Source: Gnetum montanum (lineage: Eukaryota > Plantae > Gnetophyta). Taken from it: DNA of 64,000 nucleotides. Below the pieces are notes generated by a model. The model did not search any database, had not been told where the DNA came from, and saw nothing but the letters and a program-made list of their open reading frames with translations. Below are positions 29-36,327 of this stretch, piece by piece; within the stretch, counting starts at the first letter, position 1, and the number at the start of each line of letters is the position of its first letter. Where the stretch lies: positions 125,542 through 189,541 of the forward strand of contig MNCI01002996.1 of the NCBI GenBank assembly GCA_015680685.1, read 5' to 3'. The translations under genes were made by a program, and so were the position numbers.

Positions 29-1639
29 CTGCAATCACACAGGGCCAATCATCAGTAAGGTTGTTACCAAAGTTAGGTTATACCCTACTGCTTACCTTAA
101 TGAATTTTCTTTATCTCCGTGTGACATTACTTATTAGAAGAAAATGTCCCTGAAAGATTATAATATTGAATTCTCTTTCCTTAGGTGGTTTCCAATCTAG
201 TTTCCTAGTATAACTAAGGAGATAAAATTATTTTTGGCACATTTATCCTTAATTTTATAACTAATTACCCTTAATAATGTCCTTTCGGTGATGAAGAATT
301 TCAAAACATTTATGCACTATTCGGCGTTTGCCCCTCCCCCACGACTAAGATGAACACTCTGGGTTCAAGTAGGTTCAAACAGAATGAAAATCAGAGTACT
401 AGTGAGAGAGTTATGGATATGAAAGCAAGGGATGCGCAATCATGAGTCATAGAGTGAAATTTGAAAAACTTCCACCATGTGAACAGTTGCAATGATGTTG
501 ATTAGCGCAGGGGGGTCGCATATATATATATTTTTGGGATGTGATATCACATACGCGATATGACATACATGATATCGCGGCCTATCGAAGCTAGGGCACT
601 TTATAGAATGTACCAAATTTTTAATATTTTTTGAAATTAAACAATGTAAACTAAGGAAATTTGGACAAGTGTTAAAGGGTTCCAGGGTAATTGAACTAGT
701 TCTGAAGGCATGAAAATTATGATGGTGTGGAATTTATCAATAAGGACCTCGGATGGTAAGGGGGAGAAAAAGGCTATGTGATGGTTCATAGGANNNNNNN
801 NNNNNNNNNNNNNNNNNNNNNNNNNNNNNNNNNNNNNNNNNNNNNNNNNNNNNNNNNNNNNNNNNNNNNNNNNNNNNNNNNNNNNNNNNNNNNNNNNNNN
901 NNNNNNNNNNNNNNNNNNNNNNNNNNNNNNNNNNNNNNNNNNNNNNNNNNNNNNNNNNNNNNNNNNNNNNNNNNNNNNNNNNNNNNNNNNNNNNNNNNNN
1001 NNNNNNNNNNNNNNNNNNNNNNNNNNNNNNNNNNNNNNNNNNNNNNNNNNNNNNNNNNNNNNNNNNNNNNNNNNNNNNNNNNNNNNNNNNNNNNNNNNNN
1101 NNNNNNNNNNNNNNNNNNNNNNNNNNNNNNNNNNNNNNNNNNNNNNNNNNNNNNNNNNNNNNNNNNNNNNNNNNNNNNNNNNNNNNNNNNNNNNNNNNNN
1201 NNNNNNNNNNNNNNNNNNNNNNNNNNNNNNNNNNNNNNNNNNNNNNNNNNNNNNNNNNNNNNNNNNNNNNNNNNNNNNNNNNNNNNNNNNNNNNNNNNNN
1301 NNNNNNNNNNNNNNNNNNNNNNNNNNNNNNNNNNNNNNNNNNNNNNNNNNNNNNNNNNNNNNNNNNNNNNNNNNNNNNNNNNNNNNNNNNNNNNNNNNNN
1401 NNNNNNNNNNNNNNAGAATGGATGAGTGTGTGTAATGGGCTCACTATCCAAATAATTGATCACTCGAGACTCGACAACATAGAACACACCTCAACCAATG
1501 AGCCACCTAAGTGTTTTATTTGTAGATGAGATTACTTATAAAATGATAAAAACACAAAAAGACAAAAATATAAAACAAGAAATTGAAAAATGAAAAATAG
1601 GAAAACAAAAAATTGTAAAATTAAAGAAAATGAAAAATA

Positions 1640-4600
1640 TTTATTAATCCTGCTTGTTATTAGAATGCGGGATATCCCCCATAACTAAACAATTGAGCAT
1701 GGTGAGGATTAATAAATGAAAGATGAGGATCCTTGCATGTTGGAAATATTGAAACTTGGTCATACTTACCCCATTGGGGTTCACACACCTGATTATAGTA
1801 AGCATAGTGGGGCAATTTATAAGATGTGGTTCCCGGGTAAAGAGTTGATCCACTATGATACTTGAGACCATAAGATGGTATGCAAGGATCAGGATGTCGT
1901 CCTCCATGACTATATTCATTGGGCCATATGGTTGTTGGAGTGTTAATTGGTGGCCCTAATGAACTGACACTAGGCATTGGGTTCAAGGAGGAGGATGCAT
2001 CACAGTGTTGGACTTGTGCTGAGTTGGAGAATGTACTGGCCTTGAAACTATGTTTTCCCTTCCTACGGTCATGTCTAAAGAAGGGACGCCTTTGCTATTG
2101 AGGAGGTCTCTCACTGCTGTTGGCAATAGTAGCACAAGTAATGTTCGTGGGTTGTTGCTATGGTCCAGACACTTCAGGAACAGTTAGTGGTGATGTAGAA
2201 TGAGGGAAAGGATGAGAATGTTGAAATTTAGGAGAAGTGTAAGGTACACAGGGGGTAGTTGTGTTGAGGACATGGGCTGATAGTACTGAGGAGAATAATA
2301 ATGCGGCGAGATAGAGTATGTTGACCTAGTTGGGGAAATAGGATGTTGGACTAGATAAACATTTGGATTCAGATGATACGAAGGGTGTCTCCAGTTTAGG
2401 GATGGCCTCCCCCACAAATGGGATTGTTGCCACTATGATCAAACACAGTATCTCTGTATGAACTCTAGGTGTAATGTGCTTCCCCAATGGTCATATAAAT
2501 GTAATAGGATTAGGCATTGGCCCTTGGGGTGATTGTACAAGAAAATGTTGCATTCATACGTATGATTGGCAGTTAAGCTCTTATTTTCCTCATCCCTTCT
2601 TTCTAATTGTCTAATGATATTTTTTCCTACTTCTTGGGTTGTCAAAACTCTATCTCCAATAATATTGATAGATTCCCCACACTTTTTATGCATCCATTCC
2701 AGCATCTTATTGATCTTTGCCTCAATTTCCTCAAATGATTGGTGTACTGGCAAAGATGGTTCTTCCTCCTTGAGATAGGTTGATTTCTCCTTTTTGTGAT
2801 TATGGACCTCTGTTAAGTTGAGATTTTGGTCTTGTTGATGTTTTCAACACTCTCCCCTAGCCATTTCTCCTTCTTCTCTTGCTACCTGCTTAATAAGCTT
2901 TTGGAATTGATGGGTTCGTAGTTTGTATAGTTGACCTTGGGCATACATCCCTAGGGTCTCTCTTGTTTCATTACGAAGCCCATCAATGATATGGTACATT
3001 AGCCTTTCCTCGGAGAACTCATGGCCTGGACAATTTTTTAACAATGAATAATATCTTTCTAAGTGTATTGACCTAAATCATCGGTGTAAGGCTAGAAAGG
3101 AAACAGACACCGAGAGATTGTTGGACAGCCATAGCTGACCCTGCCTTCGCCCAAGGGCAAGCTGGAAAAGTAAATGAAGGTAGAGTGCCTTGGATGATCT
3201 GCATGTAGATCAACCAAGGACTTCCCCGAGCGTAAGCTATGGCTAGCACTGGGGTTATCATAAATGGGATGTAAATGGAATGCAAACAGCAATATGAAAT
3301 GTAAATAGAGCGTATTGAATTTTAAATAAAGCTTAAACAGAACTGTATTGTAAACAAAGCATAAACCGAAGTAAATAATGTAAATGGGAGGCAATAATGA
3401 AACTGTATTGTATTGCTTAAATAGGAATATGCACCGATCAAAGTGTAGTTGCACACGTGTGGATGGCAAGTCAAACGTCTAGCCTTGGAATGATATGATG
3501 CGATGATGTGACGATGAAATGAGATGAACGTGAGAAATACTTGGAAGCCAACAATCAGGTTTGCCGAGTGCCCAAGGATTGCAAATTCTATCCTTCTTCA
3601 GAGTTGCCAATCTCTCCAATTTTTACCTCCCCGTTTATGTGAATTGATAGGGTATTTATAGGGTTGGGCTAGGTGCTGGATAGTTGCATTCTTTGACCAC
3701 GTTCAATGTATTTATGTTTGGATAGTTGTGCACGAGTTGGATGTGTGCTGGATATTTGTCTTCTTTAACCAGATTCAATGTATCTCACAACATGTGGGTC
3801 ATTCAAGCCCATGAAAATACAAATAATTTAGACAAGCCCTCAAATGATAAAAATTTACAAAGAAAATCAAGGAGGATTAACTTTGCCTCGCTTGTCTAGC
3901 ATCCAGCGTGACCTGCAGTGTGACCTCCAAAACTTGCAATTTTGAGCTGAAATCTAGAATTTCTGAAGGCTGGGACCCATAGTTATTAATAGTGGATCCT
4001 AAGGATGACTTGCACCCTTGAAATCAAGTCATTTTGGCTCAGTTTTGGGACTCTAAAAATTGGTGACGCTAATCCTTACGCTGTGCAACGTCTGAAAAAG
4101 TAACCCCAGCGTCACCACGCCAAAATGGCATATTTCAGGCCCAAATCTTAATTTTCTGGAGGCTAGGAGCTATTGGGGACCTTGGTGAAGGTCATGGGGG
4201 GTCCTTGTGCTCAATTTTGGCCTATTTTAACCCAATTTCGGGGCTCCAAAAGTTGGTGACGCTGATCCTTACGTTGTGAAGCATCTGAAAAAGTAACCAA
4301 AGTGTACTTAGCCAAAACCAAATATTTTGAACCTGAAACTTTTGATTCTGGATGCTAGAAGTTGGTGCAGTCGCCTGTGGGCCTTGGGGGAACCTTGCCT
4401 ATTGAATCATGGGCCATCGGGGGCTGTTTTGGAGGCCTCCAAGTTTGGTCACATTGTACTCATGTTGGGCAGCAGCATGACTTAGCTTGATTTTTGTCTA
4501 AAGTGCTAGGCCAAAATTAGTGGTGTTTCACTAAGGCCATGTCCAAGGGTTCATGTTGTGCTTGTTTCCACTCTTCGATTTATTTCCTCAAGGCCGACAC

Positions 4601-5150
4601 TCTTGCGTAAGTTTGATATCTTTTGTTAAAGAGTTCTACCATTGTTGGCCAACGTCGAATTGAATTTGGTTTTAATGATCTATACCATACTTTTGCTTGG
4701 CCAACGAGTGTCATAGGAAAGAGCTTGAGTTTTTGCCAACCATTATCAATGTTATTCCATGCACAGGCATTGTAGAACACTTGTAAATGTTGTTGCAAAT
4801 CTGAGTCATAGCCTCCTGAGAAATTGGGAAAGTTGTTTAAATCGAGCCTGGGTAGGCGGCTCTCTTTACNGAATCTGAGTCATAGCCTCCTGAGAAATTG
4901 GAAAAGTTGTTTAAATCGAGCCTGGGTAGGCGGCTCTCTTTACGATTCCTACGGGAGATTCAAACAGCCTCTTGTATTTGCGTTAGGCTTGTAGTGGTTA
5001 TTAGGGGTTCATCGTCATCAAGTAAGTTATGCCTTCGTGCATTGGGACGATGCTACCTTCATTTATGTTTATAAGAAAACTCCACCTCGGATTGCGTAAT
5101 CCAAACTTCATTGTCATATAATTCATTGGTTCTCCAGTGAATTGCCTCAC
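1640..5150 (-). pseudogene. gag: Degenerate Athila-type gag, split by solo-LTR 3064-4530
   Basis: FPNFSGGYDSD..QHLQVFYNAC..KLKLFPMTLVGQAKVWY..W..MVELFNKRY (4580-4940), CPGH motif (2844-3044), Cys/His knuckle remnant (2439-2753), Pro/Gln-rich tail. Many stops. Confidence 0.85.
3064..4530 (-). mobile_element. Solo-LTR, Ogre/Tat-type (1467 bp)
   Basis: TG..CA ends, TSD CTAAG (3059-3063 and 4531-4535), terminus AAAATTAGTGGTGTTTCA shared with the Ogre LTR end at 20344, minus-strand TATA near 3654. Removing it rejoins gag. Confidence 0.9.
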
Positions 5151-5309
5151 TAGATGTGGCATTATCGTAGTCTTGTAGGAGAGGCATGGTTGTGAAATTG
5201 TGTGTGAATTTGCATGTGACTTTTTGTAATTATTTCTTCCTAAAAGGTATATCATTAATTCCTATAGAGCAACCTTGTATGATATAACTAATCTAGATAA
5301 CTAGCACCG

Positions 5310-5327
5310 TCCCCAGCAACGGCGCCA
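5310..5327 (-). promoter_or_regulatory. Primer-binding site (Athila-type, tRNA-Asp-like)
   Basis: TGGCGCCGTTGCTGGGGA, one nt after the LTR end ...CCACTCATCA. Confidence 0.9.
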
Positions 5328-5328
5328 A

Positions 5329-6203
5329 TGATGAGTGGCAAGGTACCCTTACACTCAACCATACGAATACGAGTGTTTCACGCACCATCCAGTCGAACTC
5401 CACAAACAGACTAGTTGTGGTATCTAGACAATTACTCATAGATCGCAGTTCGATGTCTTCCCACCTAGACTATTATTAGCTTTGTCACGTATGGTTTAGT
5501 CCAAAGTGAGGTGTATGATGTGTTCCTACACTAATGCTACTCCTGGGTATGATGGGAAATAATATCAACTAAGCTAGGAGAGAGAGGGTGAGAGAGAATC
5601 TAAACTAGCCTAAGTGCAATGAGCATCTGTTCCTTAATCATCCGTACACATCTTGGACCTCGTGCACGACTACCACTAGGATTACGAAGCGCATGGCCTA
5701 GGTACACTACTGGGTTACCAAGTAGTCACACTTAAATGCTTGTGATTAAGTCGTACTCATTCCGCATTACTAGGAGATAAGGGTAGAGATATGAACTAAG
5801 AAAGCAATAAATAACAATAACAATTAAATAATTAAGCTAAGTGGATGCTACAATGATGAAGTAATCTCGATCTTTATTGTCGGTCATGTGCATCTCCAAG
5901 TACGTCACACTCGAGTAAGGATGTTGTACAATTACAATCATCACACTACGGGCATGCACTGGGAGAAAGGGTTGAGAGGAAAGACTGACAAAAAGTCCCT
6001 ACCTTAATACTAAAAAACTAAAAAACTTAAAACTTCCAACCTTAAAACTTAAAAGGGAACTTCTTAACCAAATCTGCCTACCTCTTATTTATAGATGAGG
6101 AGATAAGTTGCGATATTGTGTACCTGAGATCATGTCTAGGCTACGATATCGTGTACATGATATCGTGGATGTGATATCGCAACCAACAATTCATGACTCA
6201 TCA
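5329..6203 (-). repeat. 5' LTR of element A
   Basis: TGATGAG..CTCATCA termini, minus-strand TATA near 6088, CGATATCG palindromes. Homologous to LTRs at 21134, 26197, 35316 and 63556. Confidence 0.9.
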
Positions 6204-8363
6204 AGAGCTATGCTTAAGGCTAAAGTAGCTAGTACGTCAGCTATGGCATTTTCATTGTGAGGGATATGTTGGACATCTATGCTTGCAAATTATTTAAGTA
6301 AGTGTTTTGCCAGATCCTAGTAAGGTTGTAGATGTTGTGCTTTACAAGCGTAGACATCTGTGACTTGGTTAATAACTAGTTCCGAATCACCTCAGACTGC
6401 TATGTTTTGAATTCCTAACTCTTGAGTTGCTAAAATGCCTCTAAGGAAACCTTCGTTCTTTGCCATGTTGTTTGTACAAAGAAATGCAAAGTGGTATGTA
6501 AAGGGTCAGATCTCCCCGGAGGGGAATGTGATAATGGTAGCAACACTACCCCCTTGTGAGGTCGAAGCATCATCAAAGTATAAAACGGCCTCAAAATTTA
6601 TAGGTACTTAGCTTATACTACTAACATACTCATTCGGGAATTCTGGATCTATCATTGCTTGATCATCTATGAATGAAGCCGTGAGTTGTGTGGCTATTGC
6701 TTGACCTTTTGTGGATGCCCACGCTATGTAGTGCAGGTCAAACTCCATGGTTATTGCCTTCCATCTTGCTATTCTACTACTTTCATATATGTTTGTTGTA
6801 ATAGCCCTAAGTACATTGCTCTTGTAGATGACATTAACTTGACTGTAGAAAAGGTAGTGTCTCCACTTTTTAAGTGCAAAGACTAAGGCAAGAAAATTTC
6901 TCTCCACATCATTATATTTTACCTTGTGTGCTACTAATGTATGGCTTAAATAGTAGATAGGAACCTCAAAGCCCTTATCTTGCTTTTGACAAAGCAGGGA
7001 AGCAATGGATGTGTCTGAAGTTGCAAGGTAGATGTAGAAAGGTTTATCTCTTTACGAAGGATAGATTGTTGGAAGTTGAACCAACTCCTTTTTCAGGTTT
7101 TCACATGCCTCTTGGCATTGATCTGTCCACTCAAAGTTGATCCTCTTTTTGAGTAGATGTTACATTGGCTGCAACTTATCAGTCAACCTTGCGATAAACC
7201 TACGTATGAATTGCATCCTACATTGTAATCTGTGTAACTCCTTAAGGTTTGCTAGTGCCACCAAGTTGGTGATAGCCTTGACCTTATTAGGGTCTACACT
7301 TATTCTTGCTTCTAATACCACAAAGCCTAACATGCAACCGGTTTTAACGCCAGAGACACACTTTTTGGGATTAAGCCTAAGGTCATGTCTACAACAACAT
7401 TTGAGAACATGGTCCAAGTCATTCGCGTGGCCATGAGCCATTTTGGACTTAACCACTATGTCGTTAACGTAGTCATTGAGCAATTCTAACAAATAGTGAC
7501 TAAAGATGTATGTCATTGCGTGTTGATATGTTGCTTCTGCGTTCTTTAGTCCAAAGGGGCATCATTGTATAACAAAATGTACCCCAGGGGGTCATGAAAG
7601 TAGTGGTAAGTTGGTGCTCTGGGTTGATGCGAACCTATCCATGAAGGACAACAAGGCATGACTAGTTGTAGTATCGATGAGTTGGTCAATATTAGGCAAT
7701 GGGAAATCATCTGTGATGGTTGCCTTGTTTAGGTCTCGGAAGTTAATGCAAATGCATATACCTCCATTTTTCTTGGGGAAAACTATGATGTTTGAAACCT
7801 AGTTAGTATAATCTACTACCTGGATGAAACCAGCTTTGTAAAGCTTAGTGATCTCATTGTGGATGGCCAACATGACCTTCGGCTTGATTTTACAAGCTGT
7901 TTGTTTAACTAGTTTAACGTGTGGATCTAGGATAATGTTATGTTGTATTATACATAGGTCTAAGCCCAGCATGTCCTCGTAAGACCATGCAAACACCTTG
8001 ACATCATCACTAAGAACTTTAGAGATGCTTTGTTGGATTTGAGGCTCTAGTAAGGAACTAAGTTTCAATGTTTTTGCATCACCTTTGCATGTTGTTACAA
8101 GGACTTCTATGAGGGGATCCTCAGTCACATCACCTGCTTCTAAGTTTAGAGCTCGGACTAGATGTTTTGGCCAATCTAGTGACGTCTCTAGGGATGCTAT
8201 ATTGGTGTCATAAGGAAGTGGTTCGAAGTCCAAAAGTTTTATGTTTATGTGTCTCATGAGTTTTCCATACGTTCGACTCAAGGCTAAGGGCGAATGAAGA
8301 CTCTCGTATGCATTCATTTTTCAAGAGATATTGTAAGATAACTAGAAAAATGTCAAGTAGCAC
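6204..8363 (-). pseudogene. pol: Ogre pol remnant: RT, RNase H and additional (archaeal-type) RNase H
   Basis: VFAWSYEDMLGLD, YVNDIVVKS, LRLNPKKC, ALVFALKKWRHYL, RIARW, KGQAIA, then YFDDAS..TNNMAKNE..DSELVINQV (aRH). Confidence 0.9.
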
Positions 8364-8796
8364 CTGTTTTAATGAAGTAAAATGCATAAAATAAGGAAGA
8401 CAATGCTATGAAAATTAACTATGAAGTATCTAAAGTAACTTATTTATGTATATTTTATTATTTTTTGTATTTTTTGTTGTGGCCTTGATTGGTCACAAAA
8501 TTGCTAGTTTAAGGTCATAGCGGACCATAGACTATGCGTGAGGTGTAAGTCTAAGTAAGGCTTGAAAGGTTTGAAACATGGGGCTAGGTTGAACATTCAT
8601 CGAGCAAGCAGAAAAAATGTAAAAAATTTACTAAAGTGTAAAAAGTTCAAAAAGTTAGAAAATTTTTCTAACTCTAGGTGTTACGTTGCGTGGGACATGG
8701 GATGTTCCACATTAGGCATGGGACATGGAGTGTTCTGCATTATGCATAGGACATAGGATGTCTTAGAAGGGTGACATGTCATTTGACTTTAAAGGG

Positions 8797-8804
8797 TATA
8801 AATA
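8797..8804 (+). promoter_or_regulatory. TATA box of the antisense gene inside the Ogre element
   Basis: TATAAATA, followed by a leader ending at donor CAG|GTAGG (9055/9056). Confidence 0.55.
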
Positions 8805-9604
8805 GAGGCTTTACCCATGGTAAACCTGTCATTTTCACCATTAGAACCAATAGTCATCCAAGCATAGCGTGGCCAAGGCAAAGCATATTAACCACAGAAC
8901 GTGACAACAAGAGAGCTAGAGCATGACAATAAGAAGATGGCATGTAGGAGCGAGTGTAGACACCCTAGCCTTGCCAATGTTCACGAAGGCGAGCAAACCC
9001 TGCAGCATCTTCCCAACACACATGTTGAAGAGCACCAATAGACATCGTCTGTCAGGTAGGCCGTCATACTACACTCATGATTGATTTTTTTTTTTTCTGC
9101 TTCCACATGTTTGGGCTTTGGTTTTTGGGAGTTTGAAAGGTGGCTTGCTATGGGCAGGGATTGCTATTACCGTCGCTGCGACTAGGGAGGGGGTGCATGT
9201 CATGGATCCTGCTCTTTTTTTTTTTTGAGAGGGTTTGAGGGTGTCCTGCACCACGGCACTAGGCAAGGGTTTTTCGACAAGGGCTTCTAAGCATTCAGCA
9301 CCGTGGGATAGGGCAAGGTATTCTGTAATGTCTCACACTGCAAGAGGAAATGGGAATTTTATATGTACCGCTTAGTGTAGCGCATCAGGAGGGTTTTGGG
9401 TGCTCTACGTCCCATATTGCAAAACAAGGGCTTTCCTACATGTCCCGCGTAGTGGGACAACACAAGGGTTTCATGAGCCTCCTGCTCCACTACGCAAGAC
9501 AAGGGTTTTTTTTAATGTCCCATGTTATGGGACAGGACTCGACCAAGGCAATCAAGGGTCCCAATTGGCAAGCTCTAGGCATCCCTAAGAGTGTGACAAA
9601 AAGT

Positions 9605-10070
9605 CAGAAAAATTTTGACATTGCTACATTCAACGTTTGGATTTTTGCACTGAAAAAAATTTTCAGCATTTGGATTATACATTAAGAAAATTTTTAGCGT
9701 TTGAATTTTTGCACCGAGAAAAATTTCTAGTATTTGGATTTTACACTCAGAAAATTTTTGTGACTTTTTGCCAGTAACTTTGCAGTTGTTACACTCCCTG
9801 GTAGCATGACCAGTACTAAAAAAACTTTTTACATTTTTTGATAATTATTTTACAATTGACCAACAATTGAAAAAATTTTGTGCAAATTTTCTACCAATAT
9901 CTCTGCAGTTGTCATGCTCAAACACTTAGAAAAAATTTTCAAAATTTTTTCCAATTATTCCACAATTGTCACATTCTCTAGGAGCATGACAAACATTTAG
10001 AAAAATTTTTCTTGGAAAGTGTCACACTTTGCAAGGGAGTGTGACCAACAGTTAGAAAATTTTTAAGTTT
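9605..10070. repeat. Imperfect tandem repeats (AAAATTTTT..TTTGGATTTT..CAC and CTTAGAAAAATTTT motifs)
   Basis: Units of ~30 and ~65 bp. The same (CA)CTTAGAAAA(A)TTT core recurs in the LTR at 19640-20290. Confidence 0.7.
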
Positions 10071-10227
10071 TTTTTTGTAACATTCGAAAAACCTATAAAT
10101 GTTAGTTTTTTTTATATTACTTTATGCATTGTTTGTCTGTTACTTTTATCATTTTTGTTACCATTTTCCAATACTGATGCTTTCATTATTGTGGCATTGC
10201 AGGGTCCTGCTTAAACCTGCCCTTGTC

Positions 10228-13200
10228 ATGGTTAAACTAGTAAGGATTTTGTGTTGTATGAGCGATCCTGTGCTCAATGTCCCCACACCTCATGCATGCA
10301 TAGGATACTAGGTGGTCTAGTTTCGGGAGGGTGCATAGGAATTCTTAGAATTCCTACTTCGCCACTTCAATGTGATCATATGGTCACACTTGTCCACTAA
10401 AGCATCAAGTGCCCTAGTCGAAATGTTGATGCCTTGGGTAAACCGAGGCATTTTAAAATTTATGTCAAATGAACCTACTGAAGGTGAAGGGGCAAGGAGC
10501 TTAAGCTAGCGCCCAAGAGGTCTCAGGCCCTTATCTTGGATTTAGGAGATGCCCGAGTTTCAGTGTTATCATAAATACAACACTATATTCCTTGCTCCCT
10601 ATGTGGGCATGGTCTTCCAAAATCCACCTGAAATAGTTTACTATGCTGGAGGGTGAGCCCTATTATGATGATTTTTTTTATGACTCGGAATGCTTACTAC
10701 ACTTTTGCCTATTGCCAGATTTTCTGTTGATGAAGATGGCCTTCACAATGGAGAAGGGATATTAACCCTAGTCCAAAAAACCCTACAAGATTTCTCATCT
10801 ATTGAGAACATGCATGCTAGCGTTATAGGGCAGATTGGGGCAGATATGACAAATTACCTTACTAGATACTCCAAATCCTATGTGAAATGCTTGGATCTCA
10901 ATTGGTTGGATGTTGAATGGATATCCTAGATATCGTCATTCCCCACACCATTTGTACCAGGTAAGTTATGTCACTCGTTTATTTTCATGCATTTTTTTAA
11001 TTTTTTACATTTTCATCATGTTGCTGATTTTACTTTTGTTTACTGCAACTAGAGCCAAGTTTAGGGGGGTCACAGTAATTGTCTTAGGATGCACTAAGGC
11101 CAATCTTCTTTTCAAGTATGGTGAGGTTGATGGTTCGTAGCGCTGGTTGTGCCACAAGGCCCAAGCAAGGATACCCCAAAATCTTCAATGAGCTGGGCTC
11201 TTAGACCTATTCTTGGCCATGAACCCAAGCATCCCGATTGTGGAGATGATTGCCCTTGTCAATTCTTTCACGGAGAGTGCCGACCATTTCTACACATGGG
11301 TTTACAATGTGCAAGTGGTCTTTGAGATCATAGAAGACCTCTTTTCGAATCTCTTTGGAGTCCCCTTTGAAGGTTTACCTATAGGTAAAAACACGAACAA
11401 AGAGCTAAACCACAAAGGGGACATTGAAAAGTGGCTAGGCACCAAGAAAGGCCACAAGGGCATTCCCATGAAGCAGGTAAAATTGCTGGTGGCCCAACAC
11501 CTTTATCCCATCTTCTGGGCTCGCATATTTCTTAAGTTTCTTTCCTAATGAAAGGTCCTTGGGGTAGCGCGAGCTTAGGTTATCAAGGATGTGATAGAGG
11601 AAGGGGCATAATACAATTGGGCCAAATACCTTGCTGATGGCATGTGAGCCAAAATAATCAAATTTCGTGGTAATCTTAAAGCACGCTCTCATGTACATTT
11701 TGCCATTTTTGTGGTGTGCTTGTGAAGGTTTATGAAATTCCTAATGGTCCATGAAAACAGGCTATGGATGATGCAAGATCACACCCAGATATTCAAACCA
11801 TGGATCCACCATTTATTCAGCACAACATGGTCATAAGACCCCCTGGAGGCTATTGGTGATTCGTTTTCAATAACCACCAAGGGCCACACGAGGCCATCCT
11901 ACTACGTGCATGACAGTGCTGGAGAGCCTCCTCCCATCAACATAGGCAACTTAGTGAGGGGGGCACGACTCATCGTTGAGATGGTGAAATCGAAGATGCA
12001 AATCAAGAAGCCTCGTGCCATGGAGGTGCCCATGCGTGAAATTGAAGAAAAGGATAAGAAGCTACGCCTTAGACTCAACAATGCATGATCAGAGTTTTCT
12101 AGTAAGTATACATCATTTAGTATATTTTCTTTTTTATAGATATAGATTTTTTTTAGTAAGTGCTTTAACTTAAGTTTGTGCAACATAGGTGAGGAAGATC
12201 CTACTGTAGAAGAGGAGCCCTTAGAGGAGGATGTCCCTTAGCCCAAGGGACACATGACAAATGAAGACATCGTCAAAATCTTAAGTCAACTCAAAGAGGA
12301 GGGGCTGAGATTTAAGAATGGTGAGTTTGATCGTTTATTTAAAGGTGTGCAAATGGGCAATTCCCTTGGTCTCACCCCTGAGGGTTTGCTGGGTAGGAGC
12401 TTAGCATCACCATTTTCATTATGCTCTTCCTCTCCCTCTTCTCTCTCTTCCTTTTCTTACTTTTTTAATACTTTTTTATGTTTTTTTTAGAATGCTAACA
12501 TGCTTTATCTTACAGCGGGTGATGCTTCTACTAAGTGTCCTAAATCTACATCCACTTTCCGCTCATAACCGTGGACAGAAACTCTAGACAAGTTTACCTT
12601 CATGCAAGGCATAGTGGATGACATGATCGATTGTCTAAAATAGATAGATCCCAAGAGAGGTATTTTTATGTTATTGGTTTTTTGTTGTTGTGTTTTTTTC
12701 CCTTTGTCTTACAACTAATGTTTTTCCTTTTTGGTATAATAGCCTCACGACTCAAGTGGAACCCACAAAGGGTGGTCCAAGTTGATGGTGTACCTGAGTT
12801 CCCTCTTGAGGTAGAACAGGTGTCTCGTCGTATATATGACAAGGCAAGAAAATGCACACTACACTCAGCATGATCATTGTGGGAGTGTAGATGCGTGAAC
12901 AAGGAGCTCTGGAAATAAATAGAGCTTCGGGAGTAGAAGGTGAACCAGGCAATCCAGCTAGAGGATTTACAGTCACAATACGACTTCTTGGCAGCTCGCG
13001 ATAAATTAGACGGTAGCTAGTGTATAGCTATAATTGACTAAACTAGGTATTGGTCAGCCATCAGGGGCAAGAATGGGGCTACTCACGAGGTTATTAAGCA
13101 GCACTTGTAGATGGACCTCTTGGCTCGGAAGAACCAAGATTGGAAGGACTATAGCATCAAAGTGTATGAGTGGGGATAGACTTAGAAGAATCACAAGTAC

Positions 13201-13709
13201 CATTACAAGATGGAATACATGGCCTATCGTAAGAAATATAGGGATGAGTTTGTGAAACATTGATGTTGCGACATATTCCTTAATGCCATCGGTGTAACGT
13301 AAGCTTACAATAGGTTTGCGAAACACTTGGTGGTTAGTGAGTCCCTAGAGAGAGAAATTGCTATTCCTTCTAGAGAGGTTACATCTGCCACATTTTCTCT
13401 AGGGTTGCTCATATGGACAACCATTGCAAAAGGGAAGACCCTCGCAGGCGTTAATCTAGGAGAGGAGGATTGGGCACACATGACAAAGGAGGAAATCCTC
13501 TGACACCTAGAGGCTAGCCTCAACAGGATACCCCTAGACATGGACGCAAGCCCATCTCAGGTTGGTTAAATTTACTTTATTGCTATCTATTTCATTATAA
13601 TTTCACATGTTATCCTCTTTATTAATTGATTTATTGTTTTGTGTAGGATCTAGGTGAAGACGCAGGGCCTAGTGGAGCAGCAAATAAAGATGGAGGGGAA
13701 GAGCCTTAG
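10228..13709 (+). pseudogene. Degenerate multi-exon antisense gene in the Ogre PR-RT spacer (NIF/FCP1-like, PMD/DUF1985-like, coiled coil)
   Basis: GT-AG, T-rich introns at 9056-10202, 10961-11052, 12102-12188, ~12393-12515, 12660-12742 and 13561-13646. Peptides FREGA*EFLEFLLRHFNVIIWS, YNTIFL..NPPE, FEIIEDLFSNLFGVPFEG, YNWAKYLADGM. Stop TAG at 13707-13709. Confidence 0.65.
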
Positions 13710-13956
13710 CTTTCCATTAATACACATTTAAAACATTTGAAATGTAGCTCTATTGTTGGCAATTTTTTTGTATCTTTTGATGTGGATGTAATCCTAGACT
13801 ATGTATTTTCTTTATAATTTAATGAAAAGTATGATACTTATTTTATCTCTCATTTTATCATTTTAGCTTGTAACTCAGTTGATATATTTCTTTTTTTTCT
13901 CTTTTTTTTTACTTAGGATTTTTGTTGATGTAATTAGACCCCTTGTGGACCCCATG

Positions 13957-14192
13957 CAATAGTTTAAGGCCATTTCAGGCCATCACTAATTCAAGGCCAT
14001 TGTGGGCCATCAATAGTTTAAGGCCATTTCGGGCCACAGGATAGTTTAAGGTCATTTCAGGCCATCACGTAAAAAGAAGTCAGTTGCTAGTTTTAGGCTT
14101 GGGCGGGCCATGCGATAATTTAAAGTCATTTCAGGTCATCAGTAGTTTAAGGCTATTTTGGGCCTTCACTAGTTTAAGGCCATTTTGGACCC
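13957..14192. repeat. Tandem array of ~28-bp unit (ATAGTTTAAGGCCATTTCGGGCCATC-like), about 8 degenerate copies
   Basis: Directly visible repeats between the 3' end of the antisense gene and the end of gag-PR. Confidence 0.8.
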
Positions 14193-14339
14193 CACTTCTT
14201 TTTTTTATGTTCTATTCTTTTTTTTTTTTAGAAAAACAAAAGCATAACTAATGCAAGAACCAAACATGATGCAAACTGAAACTATCGAGGCAAAAGGGGC
14301 TAAAGACAAGTTAGACAAGTAAGCAAGTTAGGGACATGC

Positions 14340-17300
14340 CCTAATCGCACAGACGTTTCCTAACTTGATGTGGGTTAGGCAATGCATAAGGCCTAGGAGA
14401 CACAAGGTGATACTCCTCTAGGTCATCATCTGCCATAAAAAAGGTCAATTCTACCCATAGAGCTTCCTCATGGAGATCACTCATTTTGCTTGGTTAATCG
14501 GCCAAACAACATTGGCTTTCATTATAAACAGGTGGTGTGTCTTGGAGATTTCTACCTACAATCCTTACTCAGTGTCTACATTGTTGATGGCCCGAGGAGC
14601 CATGTTATCATCAAAGATCACAACTTCTCCACCCTCATAAGGTAAGTGGATCTCTTGGTGGATTGGTGAAGAGACAAGCCTTAGTTAGGTTAACCAAGAT
14701 CTCCCTAGAATTAGGTTGAATCCGAGCATCTCTTCAACTGTGATGAACTCTGCATTAGTGGGGAATTGCTCCCCTACCATGAAATCAATCGTGACTATTC
14801 CCTTGACAACCACGCATCCTCCATTGAAGGACTTTAAACAAGCTATTATTGTTGGTCTAATTTGATCTACTAGGCCAAGCTTATCGACAACAATGAATGG
14901 GATAACATTAGTTGTTGTCCCATCATCGATGTGCACCCTACGAATTTTGTACTAACCCATGCAAATTGTTATGAACATGGGTGCAGTAGTTACTTGATCC
15001 TTCTTAAGGTCAACTTTGATTGCTTCATCGTGAAAGGTCAAAAGTGTTAACCTTGGTTCTTCGATTGCAAGCAGGAGCATTATGGCATGGATAGCCCTTT
15101 CCTCTATTGGCATGTCTTCCTTAACAGGAATGGATGCCAACATGTGAACCAAAGCCTCACGATGGGCTAGGGAGGTCATAATTAGATCATATAGGCTTAA
15201 AGTTGTATTCTTTTGTTTTAGAGCCTGCTTGACCTGTGCAAGTGCATTTAGAAAATCTTTTCCACCATCTAGTTGTTTGGTGGTCTTTATCTTCTCCATA
15301 TGTCCTAAGAGACGAATTTCTTGAGGAGGAGGAGACTTGACTTTTGGTTGGACAGTGGACCTTTGAGCCTCGATTATTGCTTGTTATGTATGCATGTCTG
15401 TGTTGGTGACCTTAGATGATGGGGCCATGGGAACTACTAACAAGGAGATTGGCTTAGCGAGACCTAGTTTAGTGCATTCCCTAGCCATCTTATCAATCAA
15501 ATGCTTGTCACACCTCTTTGGGTAAGTAGGTTGTGATGTAGTCCCCACCATCGAACCTTAGGCAAATGGGGGGTCTGCACGTTTTGGCACCCTTATGACA
15601 AAAGGTGTTTGGGTCATTGCCACAACGTGCTGCGGGGCCCTAACCACGAAGGGTGTCACTGGCGCTCGAGGTGGTACCTTGATGATAAAAGGGGCCTGCG
15701 GCCTAGTTGACCCTGAGGCTTCAACATCACCAGAGGGCACACAGATCACAAACGGTTTATGTGTTGGATCTAGGTTATCATCAACGTTGATAGCATTAAT
15801 GATATATCCTACACCACTAGCATTTAATGGGTCCTTATAGACGTTCATGGACTGGTTGTCCAGTCGAACAAGATTACTTTCATCAAGGACCAACTTGCCT
15901 TCATTGATCATGCATTGGATATCATCCTTCAATGCTAGGCAATAATCTGTGTCATGGCCGTACAACTGATGATAGTTGTAGAATTTGTCCAACCTAAAAT
16001 TTTTGGGTACCAAAGGCTCATTGGGCATAGCCGTAGAGGGGTCTCGAAGGATCTGACAATACCTCTCATGGCATTTGTGAGCATCCTCTGACATTTTCTT
16101 ATGTTGAATGCACTCAACACTTAGCAGTTGATCCAAAAGTTCTAATGACTTGATTGGAAAAGGGGTATATTTTGAGCAATCCTTGCACTCAAAGTTTGGC
16201 CTTGGTGGAGCTTGCCCCATGGCTGTTGACGATGTGAGTTGGTTGGTTCTCGCATTGCCAGAACTTGATATTTTGTTGGTATTGGCTGAGGCCTTAGGTA
16301 CCTTAGCCTTCTACTTATTGTTGTTGGGCTTAGCTTCATTAGCCACAGCTTACATGGTGGTTGTCATGGCTTTCCCCTTTTCCTTGTCTCTCTTTGCATG
16401 CACATTCTTGTAGGCTATGTAAGTTGGGTCCTTGCTAGCCTCTACCGCATCCTGTATGATCTTTGTTTGAGCGAAAGCTTGGCTAAGGGAGTGTGAGGCT
16501 AAATAGTATAGCTTTGATTTAATGAAATCATTTACTGCACCTTTAAAAATGGCCAATAGATGGGTTTCAATGATTGGCTCACAAATCTCATTTAGAGAGG
16601 CACTCCAACATTGTATGAATTTTTGCATTGGTTCTAGCGCTTCTTGCTTAACGTTCATGAGTTGATCCAATGTGGCTTCCAGCTTCAAGTTGTACTTGAA
16701 GTAGGTTATGAACTGGCTTAACAACTCTTCTAGAGTTGAAATTGAAGCTCAAGAAAGTGCATGATACTAATCTAAAGCTTTGCTGGTCAGAGACATGGCA
16801 AAGACATAGATAACCGCATGTGGCCACGCTTGTAGTAATAAGGACTTGGAACAGAAAGTGACTAAGTGGGCATTTGGGTCACCCTCACCATTGAATTTTG
16901 TAAACTAGGGAAGTTAGACCTTGGGAGGCAGTGTGAATAGAGGAATAGTAGGGCTAATGGGATCATCCTGATAAAATTCCATTACATGGACTATCTCTAA
17001 GTTGGTTATTTTAAGCCACTTGACCTCCTCAGTGAGGGTTTGGATAAGCTGGAACACTTGGTCCAAACTTAGGGATGTTGCAGAGGGTTGCAACGGTTGT
17101 GTTGTTAGTGGTGTCGTTAAAGCGTCCCACAGCCATGTAGTAAGTTGTGTCATATGTGACGCTTGGTACATTTGTGGTTGTGTGTATTGTGACATCTGGG
17201 AAAATTGAACAATAGGTAAAGTTATTGCTACCCACCAGGCAGTTGAGGTTGAAGTTGTTGTTGGTGGTGGGACTAATATGGCTATAATGATAGAAATGTG

Positions 17301-17683
17301 ACTCATTTGTGATTGTGATATGGGCATGGTGTGCACATATAGCAACATTGGTATCACAAATGTTGGCTACAAAGGCTGAATACATTGCAAGGAAATGACA
17401 AAGGGAAAAGGGGCAAAAGGTCATGCATTCTGTTGCGTACACAAGACCAAGTGGCTAGCTACTGTTGACAAATTTTTAGGCTACGGAAGTGTCACAACTG
17501 CCTCAAAGAAGGCAGAAGACTACGACTATTGTGGCAGGAATGTAGAGGTAGAATGCGAGGCAGAGACATAGAGCAGGATGCCGCCATCAGAATGAGACTA
17601 GAACTCCTCCTGCCCATCTTACGAGGGATGCCAAGTCCTACTATTTTAGCCCACTCATCTGGATATGTTGGTCCAAAATCCAT
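14340..17683 (-). pseudogene. gag: Ogre gag-protease remnant
   Basis: FTKFNGEGDPNAHL (gag), YHQLYGHDTDYCLALKDDIQCMINEGKL, LSLYDLIMTSLAHREAL (Ogre-typical), IDDGTTTNVI..FNLILGRSWL (aspartic protease). Confidence 0.88.
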
Positions 17684-18446
17684 TTGAAAGATTTAATGAG
17701 CAGTATCACCATGCTAAGGGTAGGGAGAAACTCCCTTCCATTTCGGTGAATAATTTCAAAATTACACTTTTCTTTCATTTCCTAGAAGTCCAATGGTAGG
17801 CCCGCCTGAACCTTTGTACATGAAAAGTTGTATCATTTATCATCAAGTATCGTGTGTTTGGGGGACTAGTGTTGCAATCTAAGAGACTACCATTGTGGTT
17901 GCATCGAGCTAACTGGTTGCTCGACGTCTACCATGTGTTGCATGGGTGGACTAACTCCAAGTTCAAGGCGGCAGTTGAGGTGCTAACTAGGTTCATTTGT
18001 GTTACGTAAGAAGGACGTGAGAAAGAGGGATGTTTGCTAAAAATGCTTAAGTATAAAAAATTCTAGATAAAATGGCTAAATGTGAAAACTGTAAAGAAAA
18101 TAGGCCAAAAATGGTTGAGTTTAGAAACACTAAAAAATAGTTATCTCTGTTATTACGCTTGTCATGCTCTAAGGGACTGTTATGCTCATAGGGTGTCATG
18201 CTCTACAAAACACTTAGAGCTTGATGTAGTAAATAGTCTGGGCTTTCCATTCTACAGGGTTCAAGGGAACCGTTAACTGGGACCAATCTACACCAACCAG
18301 AACATAGACAACTCCTGCGCTAGCCTATAATCCAGCTATTGCCGTGGCAAGTCCACAGGGGTGTTATGTCTATGCTAGCTTGTTACTAGTGATGAGGGTA
18401 CAAAAAGCACGTGGGACTACCCATGGCACATAGAAGGAATGGGGGG

Positions 18447-18463
18447 CCCTCCTTCTGGCACCA
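18447..18463 (-). promoter_or_regulatory. Primer-binding site, Tat/Ogre-type
   Basis: TGGTGCCAGAAGGAGGG, a few nt after the LTR end ...ATGTCACA. Confidence 0.75.
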
Positions 18464-18468
18464 ACAAC

Positions 18469-20344
18469 TGTGACATATAAAAATGTCGGTGGCCAAAACA
18501 CCAAGAGGTTGATGGGTGTAGAGCCTAACCCCAAATCTATGGGAGGGTCATGCTGGGAAAAATGGAAATGAGGTACCCTAAATAGTCTAGTCGATCAGAT
18601 AGGGAGTTACATAGTGTAACAATAACTATTTGTGAGCAGAGTTTTAGTGAGCTTCGTGTAGGAGCCGAGACAACGAGCAAGAAAAAAATATAACGTAACG
18701 TAAATATGTGAATACGTATTGATAGTAGAAGAAGGCACAAAAAGTAAATGCTAAGAAATTTGAAACAAATGCTAAGAATATAGAACCAGAGTTCAAGGGT
18801 GGAGGAATGCACTACTTGAAGATCGAGACATGCAAATTTTGATTCAATAATGTTTGAAGCTAGTACACAGTGTTAGACAGGTATAGCGGCAGTGTAGTGG
18901 TGAGGTCACAATCTCTCGGTTGTCATGGACGTGGTGCTGGCAGCTGCAAAGGAGGTTGGACCTGCCAAGATTACAGTCGTCATGATGTGCTGGTGCAAGA
19001 AAGACTATGTCATAGTACTCAACCAGGTGTCAAGCTCGAGTGCTCAAGTGCGAGAGTGATGAAGATGCTAAGAGTGCTCTAATGCTTGATGCTTAAGATG
19101 ATTTTACTGATCAACACTTAAAATGTTGATTATTAGGGTATTTATAGAGCTAGGATTGACGTGAGATGCAGACTAGATGCCATGTGGCCTGGGTCCCATG
19201 TAGCATGAGCATGGACAAGTCACATTGACATGTTACGCTCAAAGTGTCAATCTCTAAGTGTTAAGCTCAAAGTATAATGCTCTGTAGGACAAAAATATGA
19301 ACTAAGAATATGCCAAACTGTGACCACACTGCCTGGACTGCATGTGCCAAAGTCTAAAGGACCACCATGTACCTACAAATAATGCTAAGACAAATGCAAC
19401 TTGGACTCTATGCTCCGAGACTACATCTTCCCACTCTTTCGAGCAAGGTCAAATGTAGGGACAATTTTGGGCATCAATGGGGGGGGGGGGGGGGGGTGTA
19501 AAAACAAAGCAAATTGTTGATCTTGGCCATCAGAGGGACATCAAAGCTGAAATTAAGGTCGATGCCAAGTTTTGGGAGCTTCTAGAGGCATTTCCCAAGT
19601 GTCACGCTATCTATGCTGCATAGCATGACGAAGCATAGCATGAACACTTAGAAAATTTTTGCATATTTTGACTTATCATGTTGTTTACACTGCGTAGCGT
19701 AGTAGAGCATAGCACAAGTACTTTGACAAAATTTGCCAAAATTTACAATCTTTCTTCATGGCGCGCTAACCATACTTTGAGGTATAGTAGAATAGGTAGC
19801 CTTGGAAATTAGAAAATTACCAAATGCATCTTCCATGTCTAGATAGCTTGAAGGATTCATGTTCAACACTTAGAAAAATTTCACCCTGAAACCTATGTAG
19901 CATAGCAGAGCATGACAAGCCCAAAAGATAGAAAATTTTCCAAACTGTTTCGTCCATCCTAAGCACTTTTAACAACCTCTAGCATCGTACTTGAGTGGAC
20001 TGGCAACTGAGACATGTGTCAAGCTGGGTAAGCCAGAGAGCATAGTGAGCTTGACAATCTGGGAGAGAAAATTTGCCAAACTATTTGGTCCATCCCTAGT
20101 GACCCTTGATTGCTTTTGGCCTAACATTTGTGCAAACTAGCCATGGAAGTGTGTGCTACACTGGTTGTGCTATGGAGCGTAGCAGGCAGACTTAGAAAAT
20201 TTTTGCAAAAGTCAAGACTTCCAGTGTGTTACGCTATCTACACTAGACAATATAACACCAAACTTAGAAAAATTTTGCCCAAGTCTTGACACTTAGACAA
20301 ATCTATCATTGAACATGCAAGAGCCTAAAATTAGTGGTGTTTCA
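18469..20344 (-). repeat. 5' LTR of the Ogre element
   Basis: Starts TGAAACACCACTAATTTT (minus), ends TCACA, TATA near 19139, adjacent PBS. Confidence 0.75.
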
Positions 20345-23300
20345 ATGTTCACGATCACTATTTTGTTCTTTGGATGAGTCGGCAATCTTTATAGCAATTT
20401 GAAATTTTTCATCCAAAGAGTTCCATAATTCGTTAGCCTTTACTGAGATATTAGAAACATATTTTTGTATGGGTAAGGTTTTTTTATTTACCACCTTGTC
20501 AAGTCATGCATCTTGCTCATCATAGAATCAAACCTCCCTTTTTCTTATGGAAGAGTCCCTATTATACTCTTCTGCACTTTCTCTTTTTTACAACTCACCT
20601 TCTTCTTTCGCTACCTACTCTATAACCCTTTAGATTTGATGAGCTCTTAATTCAGATAGTCTCTCTTAGGCATAAACCACAAGAGTTCTTATAGCTTCTA
20701 CTCTAAGCCCATCTATGATGTGGTGGAGTTGCTTCCTTTGAGAATAATCATGGCCAAAGCATTAATGTAAGAGAATAATACCTGGCCATCGTGGCATCCA
20801 AGGGTTCATGTGTTCCCTGTTTCTAGCCTTGGATTTGCCTTCTTAGGTTGCAAACTCTGGAGTACGTTTGGTATTTATCATTAAATAGTTCCAACATGGT
20901 ACTCCATCTGCGAATGGATCCCAACTCCAAGGACCAGTACTAACTTTTAGCTTCCTTAATGAGTGTCCTAGGGAATAGCTTGAATTTTTGCCAATCATTT
21001 TCAATGTTTTGTAAGACACAGGCATCATGGAAAGCTTGTAGATGTGTTTGCGGATCAGAATTATATCCCCCCTCAAATCTTGGGACATTATTCATGTCTA
21101 AGCACTTGATTTGACTATTTTTCACATGCTTGGTGATGAGACGTGATATCGCATGCACCGCGATATTGCGTACGCGATATCGTGGCCGTCATGATATCAC
21201 ATCCCATGCAATATCGCGTACGCGATATCGCATCGTCCCCTACGATATCGCGGTCCACCACCAAATCTATAAATAAGAGGCAGCACTCCCCTCATTTCTC
21301 ATCCTAGGCTTAAAGTAGGGAAACTGTAGCAGTTTGATCACTCCAGAGATAGAATATTTTCCATGTGCCCGCAGTAGGAGTCCCCAAGTGAACGGATCTT
21401 TATTCGAGCAGCTTTGTACCTGAACGCAAGTTGTGTACGGTAATAAAGACGAGCTTTGTGGATAAACCTTGCAGTGCATGGAATAGGATTTATTACTTGT
21501 TATTTATTACATGTTATTTATTACCTGCATTAGCACAGCATGAGTACGACTTGATTACGAGCATTGACGAATGTGTACGGCTAATCAAGGAATCGGCTAC
21601 TCATCACGATTAGTCTCTCTCATCCTTATCTCCTAGAATGTGAGATCAGTATGACTTGATTATGAGCATATACGAATGTGTACAGCTAGTCAAGGAATCA
21701 GCTGCTCATCACGTTTAGGCTGGTTAAGTGCCTCAGTACGACCACTTCGAGCACGTGTGTTATGTGTGGTGATCCTAGTAACGATTAGCATTTGGTAGCC
21801 ACATTTGCATAGTTCAGGGTGTGTATGGTAAGTGGGAACGGATGCTGATGCTAGTTAATTTAGACTTAGTCCTTAGTTAGAGTTAGTTAGCTCTCTCAAC
21901 CCTTCACCTTCATAGCATAGGAGAAAAACCATAAAAGACCATAAAAATCATGTACCTCGGACTTACTTAACCATACACCGTGACAACAACAAGTAAGTCT
22001 GGAAAGACAATGAATGATTAACCCCAAGTGTTCCATGGGGCATTTAGGTATTTAGTCTGTAGAGTTCGACCGAATCGCGCGTGCTACGCTCGTTTCGTAT
22101 GGTTGAGTGAAGGGGTACCTCGCCACTCATCACTTGGTTAGAATCTTAATTACCTCTACAATGTTAAGCATGCTTCAAGTAGCCAACAGAGGCTCATCAT
22201 CATCATTATTATGTTGTCTTCGATGATGTTCTCTGTTACCTCAATGTTCTTAGCAGGTTCGATGATCATTGTTGTCTCATTGATCATCTTCATCATGATT
22301 ATTTCTACAGTAACTACTATGAGAACCAACAGATGAAGATGAATGTTTGAAATTGAATGAAGAGGATGAAGGGGAAGGTGGACTACCACTGCCACCATGG
22401 TATCCACCACCACCTCTTCGCTCATTACGACCACCATCCTTGGGTCCCTTACCATCATGATGCTTACAAAAGTTCCTACCTTGACTGTTACGTTTTCCTA
22501 AACCTGGTTTATGAATAGTGGATCGTAGGTTCAGGGTCACACCCTCATCACTAGCAATAAAGGGTGGAGAATCTTCATGTTGGAAACCCTCAAGAAGAGG
22601 ATCCACATTATCATCTTCATTTAGTAGGAACAAAGGGTTAGTGAAGTGTTTCCCCTTTGTAAACTTGTGGTGCTTTCCCTAGTGTCAATCTCTTCTACAT
22701 TTTGTTTTAGTGGGATGCTAGTCTCAAGTGTCATAACCATTCACAACATATTCTTCGTGAATATTTGGGACACCCAACTTTTTAAGAGTTTGAAAGAGCA
22801 TCTATGGCATAGATCGATCAGGAGGCAATACGATGTTGCCCTCCATATCATGCCATCACAATTGTTCATCCTAATGTAGGATGAAGATGAAGTCCAGTAC
22901 ATACTCATTTGGATGAGTATATACCACTTTGCACTATTGTGGGACCAACAGTTTGACATCTTCATGCATGTGGGAAAAGTCCTTAGCAATGGCGCTAATG
23001 ATGAGTGACAAGATACCCCTATGTCCAACCATACAAATCATAAAGCATTCACATGCGATCCAGTTGAATTCCGTGGACTTTATAGTTTTTGATGCACTAG
23101 TCTTCTAGGCAGTGAACCTTTCCCTAAGGTTGTTCATTGTCTTCTTGATTACACTTATGAAGTACAAAGGTATGGTTAAGTGAAATCAAGGCATATGATT
23201 GTTATCATTTTATATTTTATGTTCTTTAGTGCTTTGTAGAGAGAGATAAAGTAGTTTAATGACTGATCTAAATTAACTAACTAACTAATCTCTAACTGAT

Positions 23301-35834: not shown

Positions 35835-36327
35835 TAAGTAATTAATCAATATCGATTAAATAGCAAACATAAGTATAACCACTTCGAGCATATGTTTAAC
35901 GCTTGGTAACTTAGAGGCACTATAACATGTTTAGGATGTGTATAGAAAGTGGGAATGGATGTTTATGTTAGGATTACTTAAGTATTAGTTAGTTACTAGA
36001 TTAATTACACATTAAATTTACTTTGTTTCCAACACTTAAGCAATTAAACCATAAAAGACAAAATGATAAAAATCATATGCCTCAGTTACACTTAACCATA
36101 TACTTGCACTTCGTAAGTGGAACTGAGAAGACAACGATTGCAATAGTTAGATTCACTTCATAAAACCTAGTGTACCTAGAGAGCCAAAGTCTACGAAATT
36201 CGACCGAATTGCTTCGTGAATGCTAGTGATTCATATGGTTGAACATAGGGTATACTTGTTGCTCATCACTCCACCTTCATTGTAAACAACTTAAAATTTC
36301 TTCTTCTTGGGGAGGGGGAGGGGGTGT

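Follow-up and report, generated by a model that had tools for sequence, protein, structure and literature searches.

Ogre/Retand retrotransposons of the Tat lineage can carry extra open reading frames (ORFs), and antisense extra ORFs are known in Tat elements, usually 3' of pol, with a function that is described as an open question in the cited passages of PMC7264820 and PMC11963269. Here we describe an antisense gene in a decayed Tat/Ogre-like Ty3/Gypsy element of Gnetum montanum (Gnetophyta), located in a stretch of 64,000 nt of contig MNCI01002996.1 (125,542 to 189,541, forward strand), called the window hereafter and used as the basis of all coordinates. The gene contains a domain of the NIF/HAD family without Asp at the predicted catalytic positions. 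The element resembles the Ogre/Retand elements with extra ORFs in the cited passages of PMC6317226 and PMC4408406 in the order of its pol domains, reverse transcriptase (RT), RNase H (RH) and a second RNase H of archaeal type (aRH), in a gag-protease that is uncoupled from pol, in an extra gene that lies antisense and, further, in a probable PMD-like domain that is followed in this gene by a coiled-coil-like stretch. In PMC6317226 the published extra ORFs are sorted into those located 5' and those located 3' of the polyprotein, whereas the gene in the window lies inside the gap between protease and RT and is apparently multi-exon. The RH-aRH order is a feature of angiosperm elements in that paper, and the window comes from a gnetophyte.

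A captured enzyme domain has a precedent in the Gypsy elements of Phalaenopsis, which are Tat-related as well (dual RNase H) and carry a captured host enzyme domain, AlkB, in an extra ORF (passages of PMC9289625). The Phalaenopsis AlkB is catalytically active, while the window element carries another enzyme family, with catalytic residues apparently lost. The table of extra ORFs in PMC6317226 holds 12 domains (E 1e-10, five or more elements), none of them NIF/HAD, and five supplements of that paper contain none of the terms NIF, pfam03031, CPDc, HAD, FCP1 and phosphatase. The angiosperm screen of PMC9289625 gives 15 extra domains, and those named in its section 12 include no phosphatase. In a literature search at the level of titles and abstract openings we found nothing on a NIF/FCP1-like domain in a retrotransposon. 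What appears to be new is the NIF cargo domain and its unusual position in the protease-RT gap, antisense extra ORFs of Tat elements being already known.

The domain is read in one plus-strand frame (codons 10204+3k), in which we located three peptides quoted by an earlier note on this DNA, FREGA*EFLEFLLRHFNVIIWS, LRPLSWI*EMPEF and YNTIFLAPYVGMVFQNPPE. A fourth peptide of that note, YDDFFMT, could be followed only in part: YDDFF is present in the second frame and FFMT in the third, so that the continuous peptide spans two frames, and we could not confirm it in other copies. The frames change across the T-run 10672-10679, and LLP stands again in the first plus frame. With stops read as X, the frame 10204-10960 matched Pfam PF03031 (NIF) at E 1.7e-4 and 21.8 bits (one of ten proteins scanned), and the shorter piece 10204-10653 matched it at E 5.8e-5 and 23.3 bits, with a cut-off of 21.8. 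The alignment sets residues 36-135 on profile positions 35-136 of 160, that is, the region from motif II to motif IV. PF03031 is the sole family matched by this frame, and no Pfam family was found in the other five (two plus, three minus) over the same region. The NIF/HAD assignment of the earlier note is supported by a match above the gathering cut-off in one frame of six, obtained with the X-at-stops frame of a single copy. The layout of the domain seems closest to that of the plant 'DLNG' NIF proteins and not to FCP1/SCP/CPL proper. Nothing points to FCP1/SCP in particular, which the note had named; the NIF family includes Tim50, UBLCP and Dullard too (passages of PMC8346121).

Of the 252 codons of the frame, 10 are stops, and the reading is disturbed at about 10650-10690; a marginal PF03031 score is expected for so decayed a copy. 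A HAD fold is suggested by this one profile match. The single-sequence AlphaFold model of the NIF exon reached a confidence score (pLDDT) of 38, and Foldseek found no match at E 0.001 with it, a result that is meaningless on so poor a model. Searches for homologs of the NIF exon gave none: a word-indexed protein search upheld none of its 133 candidates at E 0.01 and none of 148 at E 10 (proteins of up to 639 residues), phmmer found 0 homologs at E 0.001 among 1.84 billion representatives, and the PDB sequence search returned chance matches only (E 0.45 or worse). In metagenome contigs none of 360 pattern matches was confirmed and a DNA pattern had 0 matches, neither of two candidates in viral contigs was upheld, NCBIfam matched none of three sequences, and no second copy was found within the 64-kb window.

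Other copies were sought in sequencing runs. Nine of the 21 runs listed, from three studies, hold part of 10150-13750, and we surveyed copies on 10190-10650 (461 bases) at 80% likeness in three DNA runs, X1 (organism A), X6 (C) and X8 (D), of which X1 possibly represents the sample that the window stems from. The contig pieces numbered 1,655, 2,063 and 1,069, respectively; most were less than 90% alike to the window, and only 47, 63 and 25 were at least 99% alike. The antisense NIF gene is a many-copy gene. A free-standing host pseudogene was considered and rejected, as the copies are many and the gene lies inside an element. The summed contig depth of X1 over 5000-20500 was 73-145 in intron 1, 727-3,751 in the exons and 1,833-25,050 in gag and pol, with single pieces at about 5-12; we did not take the sum as a copy number, a use against which the depth tool itself warns.

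FCP1/SCP-type enzymes require the motif DxDx(T/V), and fungal Tim50, in which the motif is imperfect, is inactive; the window domain shares profile positions 35-136 with the NIF Asp phosphatases but has neither DxDx(T/V) nor DD, akin to fungal Tim50 (passages of PMC8346121). Residues 1-20 of the window copy contain no Asp, and hence the absence of the motif I Asp is independent of the exact placement of this motif. We placed it at residues 7-16 (LVMVKLVRIL), following the plant NIF layout and the distance to the RP-like motif. In X1, residue 11 is Glu in 68% of the depth and residue 14 is Gly in 91%; the close copies would thereby come nearer to the plant NIF pattern, but with Glu at the nucleophile position. 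In motif IV, Ala-Pro stands in place of the expected DD, and the second position is His in about half of the close copies. The Ser of motif II is retained, and Arg occupies the inferred Lys position of motif III. At the inferred motifs I and IV no Asp reaches 45% in X1 or X6, two of the three DNA runs, and the change-type totals of both runs leave no unlisted change able to yield Asp in residues 1-20 or 130-133. Since the close copies in these runs have no majority Asp, the loss is not merely decay of the window copy and predates that decay. The lack of catalytic Asp, as the earlier note had put it, therefore holds at the inferred motifs for the window copy and, by residue content and run depth, for most close copies.

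These data bear on a different possibility, that the family encodes an active HAD phosphatase and that only the subfamily at least 80% alike to the window at motif I has lost the Asp, perhaps as it neared extinction. In its favour, the motif II Ser is kept, the AlkB captured by orchid Gypsy elements stayed active (PMC9289625, passages), and depth at motif I is only about 1/60-1/68 of that of the core, so that most relatives are unseen there. On the other side, neither inferred motif has a majority Asp in X1 or X6, Glu at residue 11 is found in 14-28 contigs per run under three organism labels, and depth also drops at motif IV (930 vs 2,972 in the preceding bin), as expected of relaxed catalytic motifs. 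We consider an active enzyme unlikely.

The main argument for selection on the protein comes from depth along the exon. The maximum in X1 falls on FNVIIWS (21,894 vs 682-1,210 in bins 10398-10445), lesser peaks fall on GILKF and EF..YNT, and the pattern is the same in X1, X6 and X8. The stretches on which diverged relatives agree best are thus those with the highest conservation in the NIF family, which is the pattern that protein-level constraint would give, an indirect indication of selection.

The NIF frame begins at a splice-acceptor-like site (TGCAG before G, 10202/3), and a donor, GTAAGT, closes it at 10961. The ATG at 10228 was rejected as a start, the splice acceptor and an in-phase upstream exon fitting better. 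We infer from the sequence that the gene likely consists of seven spliced exons on the plus strand, antisense to the element, with about 1,050 codons (Table 1). Within this likely spliced gene of the protease-RT gap the NIF frame would then be a single exon, and its product was probably fused with the accessory-type domain of exon 3. Predicted introns 2-6 measure 82-112 nt with 69-79% AT, intron 1 measures 1.15 kb, and GT..AG ends with matching phase are present in four of the six (1, 3, 5 and 6). Exons 4-7 would encode an acidic linker, a coiled-coil-like stretch (by eye) and a tail. Outside the shifted segment, exons 2-3 have 15 stops in 582 codons and gag-pol 27 in 1,724 (Fisher p 0.15), a similar density that is consistent with cargo and gag-pol decaying together.

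A stop-free stretch of 118 residues in exon 3 scored 0.90 to an unnamed plant cluster in an atlas comparison, and its named neighbours were DUF1985 (0.84, 48% of members), ATHILA (0.79), Transposase_32 (0.79) and PMD (0.78). All these named families are retroelement accessory families, and exon 3 might encode a PMD/DUF1985/ATHILA/Transposase_32-like accessory domain, which we offer as a lead only. The word-indexed search with exon 3 upheld 0 of 498 candidates at E 0.1 (proteins of up to 639 residues), and its single-sequence AlphaFold model was unusable (pLDDT 40).

The element around the gene has aRH after RH, and its gag-protease is set apart from RT by a stop and a gap of 6 kb, both features of the Tat clade. 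RT-RH-aRH is the Ogre/Retand order (PMC6317226, passages), and an intron between gag-protease and pol is described for Ogre (PMC4408406, passages). The location of the gene in a retrotransposon, as claimed before, is supported by the Pfam matches of pol, among other data. A donor of the putative gap intron was not located; an acceptor-like site lies near 8364. Pol is interrupted at about 6195 by another long terminal repeat (LTR), ahead of any integrase. No Pfam match was obtained for the gag-protease frame, whose gag and protease motifs were recognised by eye. The ends of the LTR are inferred and a second LTR was not found in the window. The tract next to it resembles the primer-binding sites (PBSs) of Tat elements.

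A short motif of the AGAAAATTTT type, often preceded by ACACTT or ACTT, forms arrays in intron 1 and in the putative LTR U3 (Table 1), and two further copies stand upstream of the TATA-like box of the gene. These three clusters, which make up 2% of the window, hold 19 of its 44 hits; the Markov expectation is 1.2 in intron 1, 0.2 in U3 and 0.1 upstream of the TATA-like box, and two AT-rich control regions have 0 and 2 motifs. A motif common to LTR and intron 1 argues that the gene belongs to the Tat/Ogre-like element. A TAGTTTAAGG repeat is found on both flanks of the gene (8505; 13952-14194).

The cassette of 8.5-14 kb could instead be a separate mobile element, for example with an accessory gene of a DNA transposon, inserted into the Tat gap. 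Three contigs each in X1 and X5 have a joint, 8518-14040, by which the gene is left out, the cassette has less depth in X1 than gag and pol (73-3,751 and 1,833-25,050), and PMD-like domains occur in Mutator-like elements (MULEs) too (passages of PMC4408406). The joint, which may reflect cassette-less derivatives or a repeat artefact, extends over no more than 25 letters on the shorter side, inside a shared TAGTTTAAG repeat, and no terminal inverted or direct repeats stand at the cassette ends among those listed; moreover, the motif of intron 1 also fills the LTR and the cassette has decayed to a degree similar to gag-pol. We regard a nested element as the least probable of the alternatives weighed here.

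Table 1. Features of the antisense gene and of the Tat/Ogre-like element that contains it (window coordinates)
Feature	Position	Strand	Remarks
TATA-like box of antisense gene	8790..8806 (8796)	+	GGGTATAAATAG; core identical to LTR TATA on other strand
Predicted exon 1	8937..9055	+	ATG, 39 codons, 1 stop; GTAGG donor, phase matches exon 2
(ACTT)AGAAAATTTT-type motif array, intron 1, 11 copies	9580..10080	.	Motif search
Predicted exon 2, NIF/HAD-like domain	10203..10960	+	Pfam PF03031; 10 stops; many-copy
Inferred motif I	10222..10251	+	Residue 11 is Lys in this copy and Glu in most of the close ones; outside Pfam match
Inferred motif IV region, NTIFLAPY..NPP	10579..10629	+	Without DD
Predicted exon 3, accessory-type domain	11053..12101	+	9 stops in 344 codons vs 23 and 20 in other plus frames
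Predicted exons 4-7	12189-~12403, 12516-12659, 12743-13560, 13647-13709 (final stop)	+	Gaps 82-112 nt, AT-rich, mostly GT..AG
TAGTTTAAGGCC tandem array	13952..14194	+	Lone core copy at 8505, opposite side of gene
Decayed pol, RT-RH-aRH	6195..8320	-	Pfam E-values: RVT_1 4.9e-10, RT_RNaseH_2 1.1e-24, RVT_3 4.1e-14, in order
Protease-RT gap of ~6 kb, likely Ogre-type intron, contains antisense gene	8365..14400	-	Stop after protease; AT-rich tract ending ..TTAAAACAG before G near 8364
Decayed gag-protease frame	14450..17500	-	17 stops in 1,016 codons vs 73 and 82 in other minus frames
PBS-like tract	18447..18463	-	Sequence
Putative 5' LTR of Tat/Ogre-like element	18469..20315	-	TG 20315, CA 18470-69, then TGG-led PBS-like tract; TATA-like box near 19140
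AGAAAATTTT-type motif array, putative LTR U3, 6 copies	19600..20320	.	Motif search

Several observations weigh against a spliced and selected gene with a pseudo-phosphatase domain. The PF03031 score barely exceeds the cut-off, and profile positions 1-34, with motif I, lie outside the match; the placement of the motifs follows the general plant NIF layout, the low depth at motif I (60-68x below the core) is partly an edge effect and leaves most relatives unseen there, and in X8 two unlisted changes, a C>A and a T>G, could matter for Asp. In the gene model, exon 2 is in frame with exon 3 only if splicing uses the second AG (GAG) of a tandem acceptor. A clear donor is missing from intron 4, and the junctions were picked with the frames in view, so that they are support and not proof. 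Exon 3 has no Pfam (at E 1) or NCBIfam match and its named atlas scores are all below 0.9, and the limits of the motif clusters were set only once the clusters had been noticed. Among the pieces listed there is none that would connect gene and gag or pol elsewhere than in the window copy, the mean depth of the RNA runs on the gene is mostly below 1, and no splice joint is among those listed from these runs. Finally, the 40 listed of 61 majority differences comprise 26 non-synonymous, 12 synonymous and 2 at stops, and look neutral. The 26:12 ratio most likely records the window copy's own decay and lends no support to selection. Of five stops in the surveyed stretch, at least two read another letter in 47% and 76% of the X1 depth. 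RNA run X15 gave 10 diverged reads, 0 at 95% likeness or more; such sparse reads speak neither for nor against activity in ancestors. An RNA peak of X11 at 12238-12754 was treated as an artefact (poly-T loose ends).

The neutral look of the majority differences and the absence of expression of note would suit a host gene fragment that was transduced once and hitch-hiked in a successful element, its protein doing nothing for the element. Conservation among diverged copies that peaks on NIF protein motifs in three runs argues against this, as does the exon structure, in which the NIF exon shares its phase with the ATG exon before it and phase-matched exons come after it. Transduction, moreover, ordinarily places its cargo in sense orientation (PMC7264820, passages), and an antisense, intron-bearing cargo does not look like it. 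Neutral hitch-hiking thus seems improbable to us, more so than an active enzyme.

The window copy itself is dead. In this subfamily, we consider it probable that the element carried a selected accessory gene with a pseudo-phosphatase. The fuller reading, a NIF/HAD domain without Asp at the predicted catalytic positions that a many-copy antisense gene retained for binding and not for catalysis, joined to a likely PMD-like accessory domain, is the one we lean towards by a little. A host gene is the likely source of the captured domain. The TATA promoter of the antisense gene would have driven its transcription in active ancestors, the transcript would have been spliced, and the antisense orientation would let its introns survive reverse transcription, as established retrotransposon biology implies. 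The product of about 1,050 residues would bind the A/T motif arrays of the LTR and of its own intron 1 via the accessory domain, and the dead phosphatase pocket would dock a phosphorylated host protein, so that the element stays transcribed. As a whole, this DNA-binding, anti-silencing mechanism is tentative and has the odds against it. Somewhat more doubtful is its most specific form, in which a Tat lineage would have fused a captured HAD pseudo-phosphatase, a phospho-reader of the RNA polymerase II carboxy-terminal domain or of another nuclear phosphoprotein, to a PMD-like domain targeting the LTR arrays, and thereby gained a sequence-specific anti-silencing or trans-activating factor. As a docking partner, no polymerase CTD stands out in these data.

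PP7L, a host protein that pairs with PMD-type proteins, is not known to be active. The proposed DNA binding and phospho-docking are modelled by analogy on PMD-PP7 modules, on PMD-DNA motif modules, which oppose Polycomb (passages of bioRxiv 2024.09.27.615353), and on VANC. In host MAIL3 and MAIN/MAIL1-PP7L a PMD-type domain is paired or fused with a phosphatase-family domain, and these proteins act at DNA motifs; they are host genes with a PPP metallophosphatase fold that help to silence transposable elements, whereas the gene in the window is HAD-family and on the element side, its PMD likeness being a lead only (PMC7156037, passages). VANC of the VANDAL transposons is likewise an accessory protein encoded by a transposable element with tandem motif arrays in non-coding parts; VANDALs are DNA transposons, VANC is anti-silencing, and the likeness to the gene in the window is a functional analogy only (PMC5735166, passages).

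The window as a whole consists of LTR elements nested in one another and a single host gene next to them. At 6502, in the aRH region, both RNA runs carry a 6-letter deletion (5 of 15 and 10 of 11 reads) that no DNA contig has; a single diverged copy that is expressed, or else an RNase H gene of the host, is a possible source of these reads. GATATCG-rich LTRs with a TGGCGCCGTTG-type PBS, which we take to be of Athila type, lie at 5309-6193 (minus), with related copies near 21100-22130, 23000, 26177-27000 and 35296-36000, and one such LTR interrupts the aRH of the Tat element. A further Ty3/Gypsy element is nested at 27700-35000 (minus); it has an integrase match (29318-29770) and is flanked by related LTR copies, one at about 26200 and one at about 35300. 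The ORF 61503-62012 (minus) matches Transposase_32 (PF20167, E 3e-7) and is another retroelement accessory gene; tblastn gave no cross-match between it and the exons of the antisense gene. The host gene at 41222-44782 (plus), presumably TAF4-like, is intron-split, with a very long Gln-rich exon and a weak terminal match to the RST domain (E 0.0025), and one of its introns contains three near-identical AT-rich units of about 50 nt each (about 44780-44930). A near-perfect 72-nt tandem duplicate divided by a single N at 4798-4943 is likely a scaffolding artefact.

Most antisense extra ORFs of Tat elements carry domains of unknown function. In the gene described here one such domain is likely joined to another with well-understood chemistry, and with candidate DNA targets in the same element the function of a pseudo-phosphatase plus accessory domain becomes testable. 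If true, it would be an element-side mirror of the host PMD-PP7 modules, a spliced gene hidden antisense in a gag-pol intron, and it would extend the catalogue of retrotransposon cargo by one captured domain and one position.

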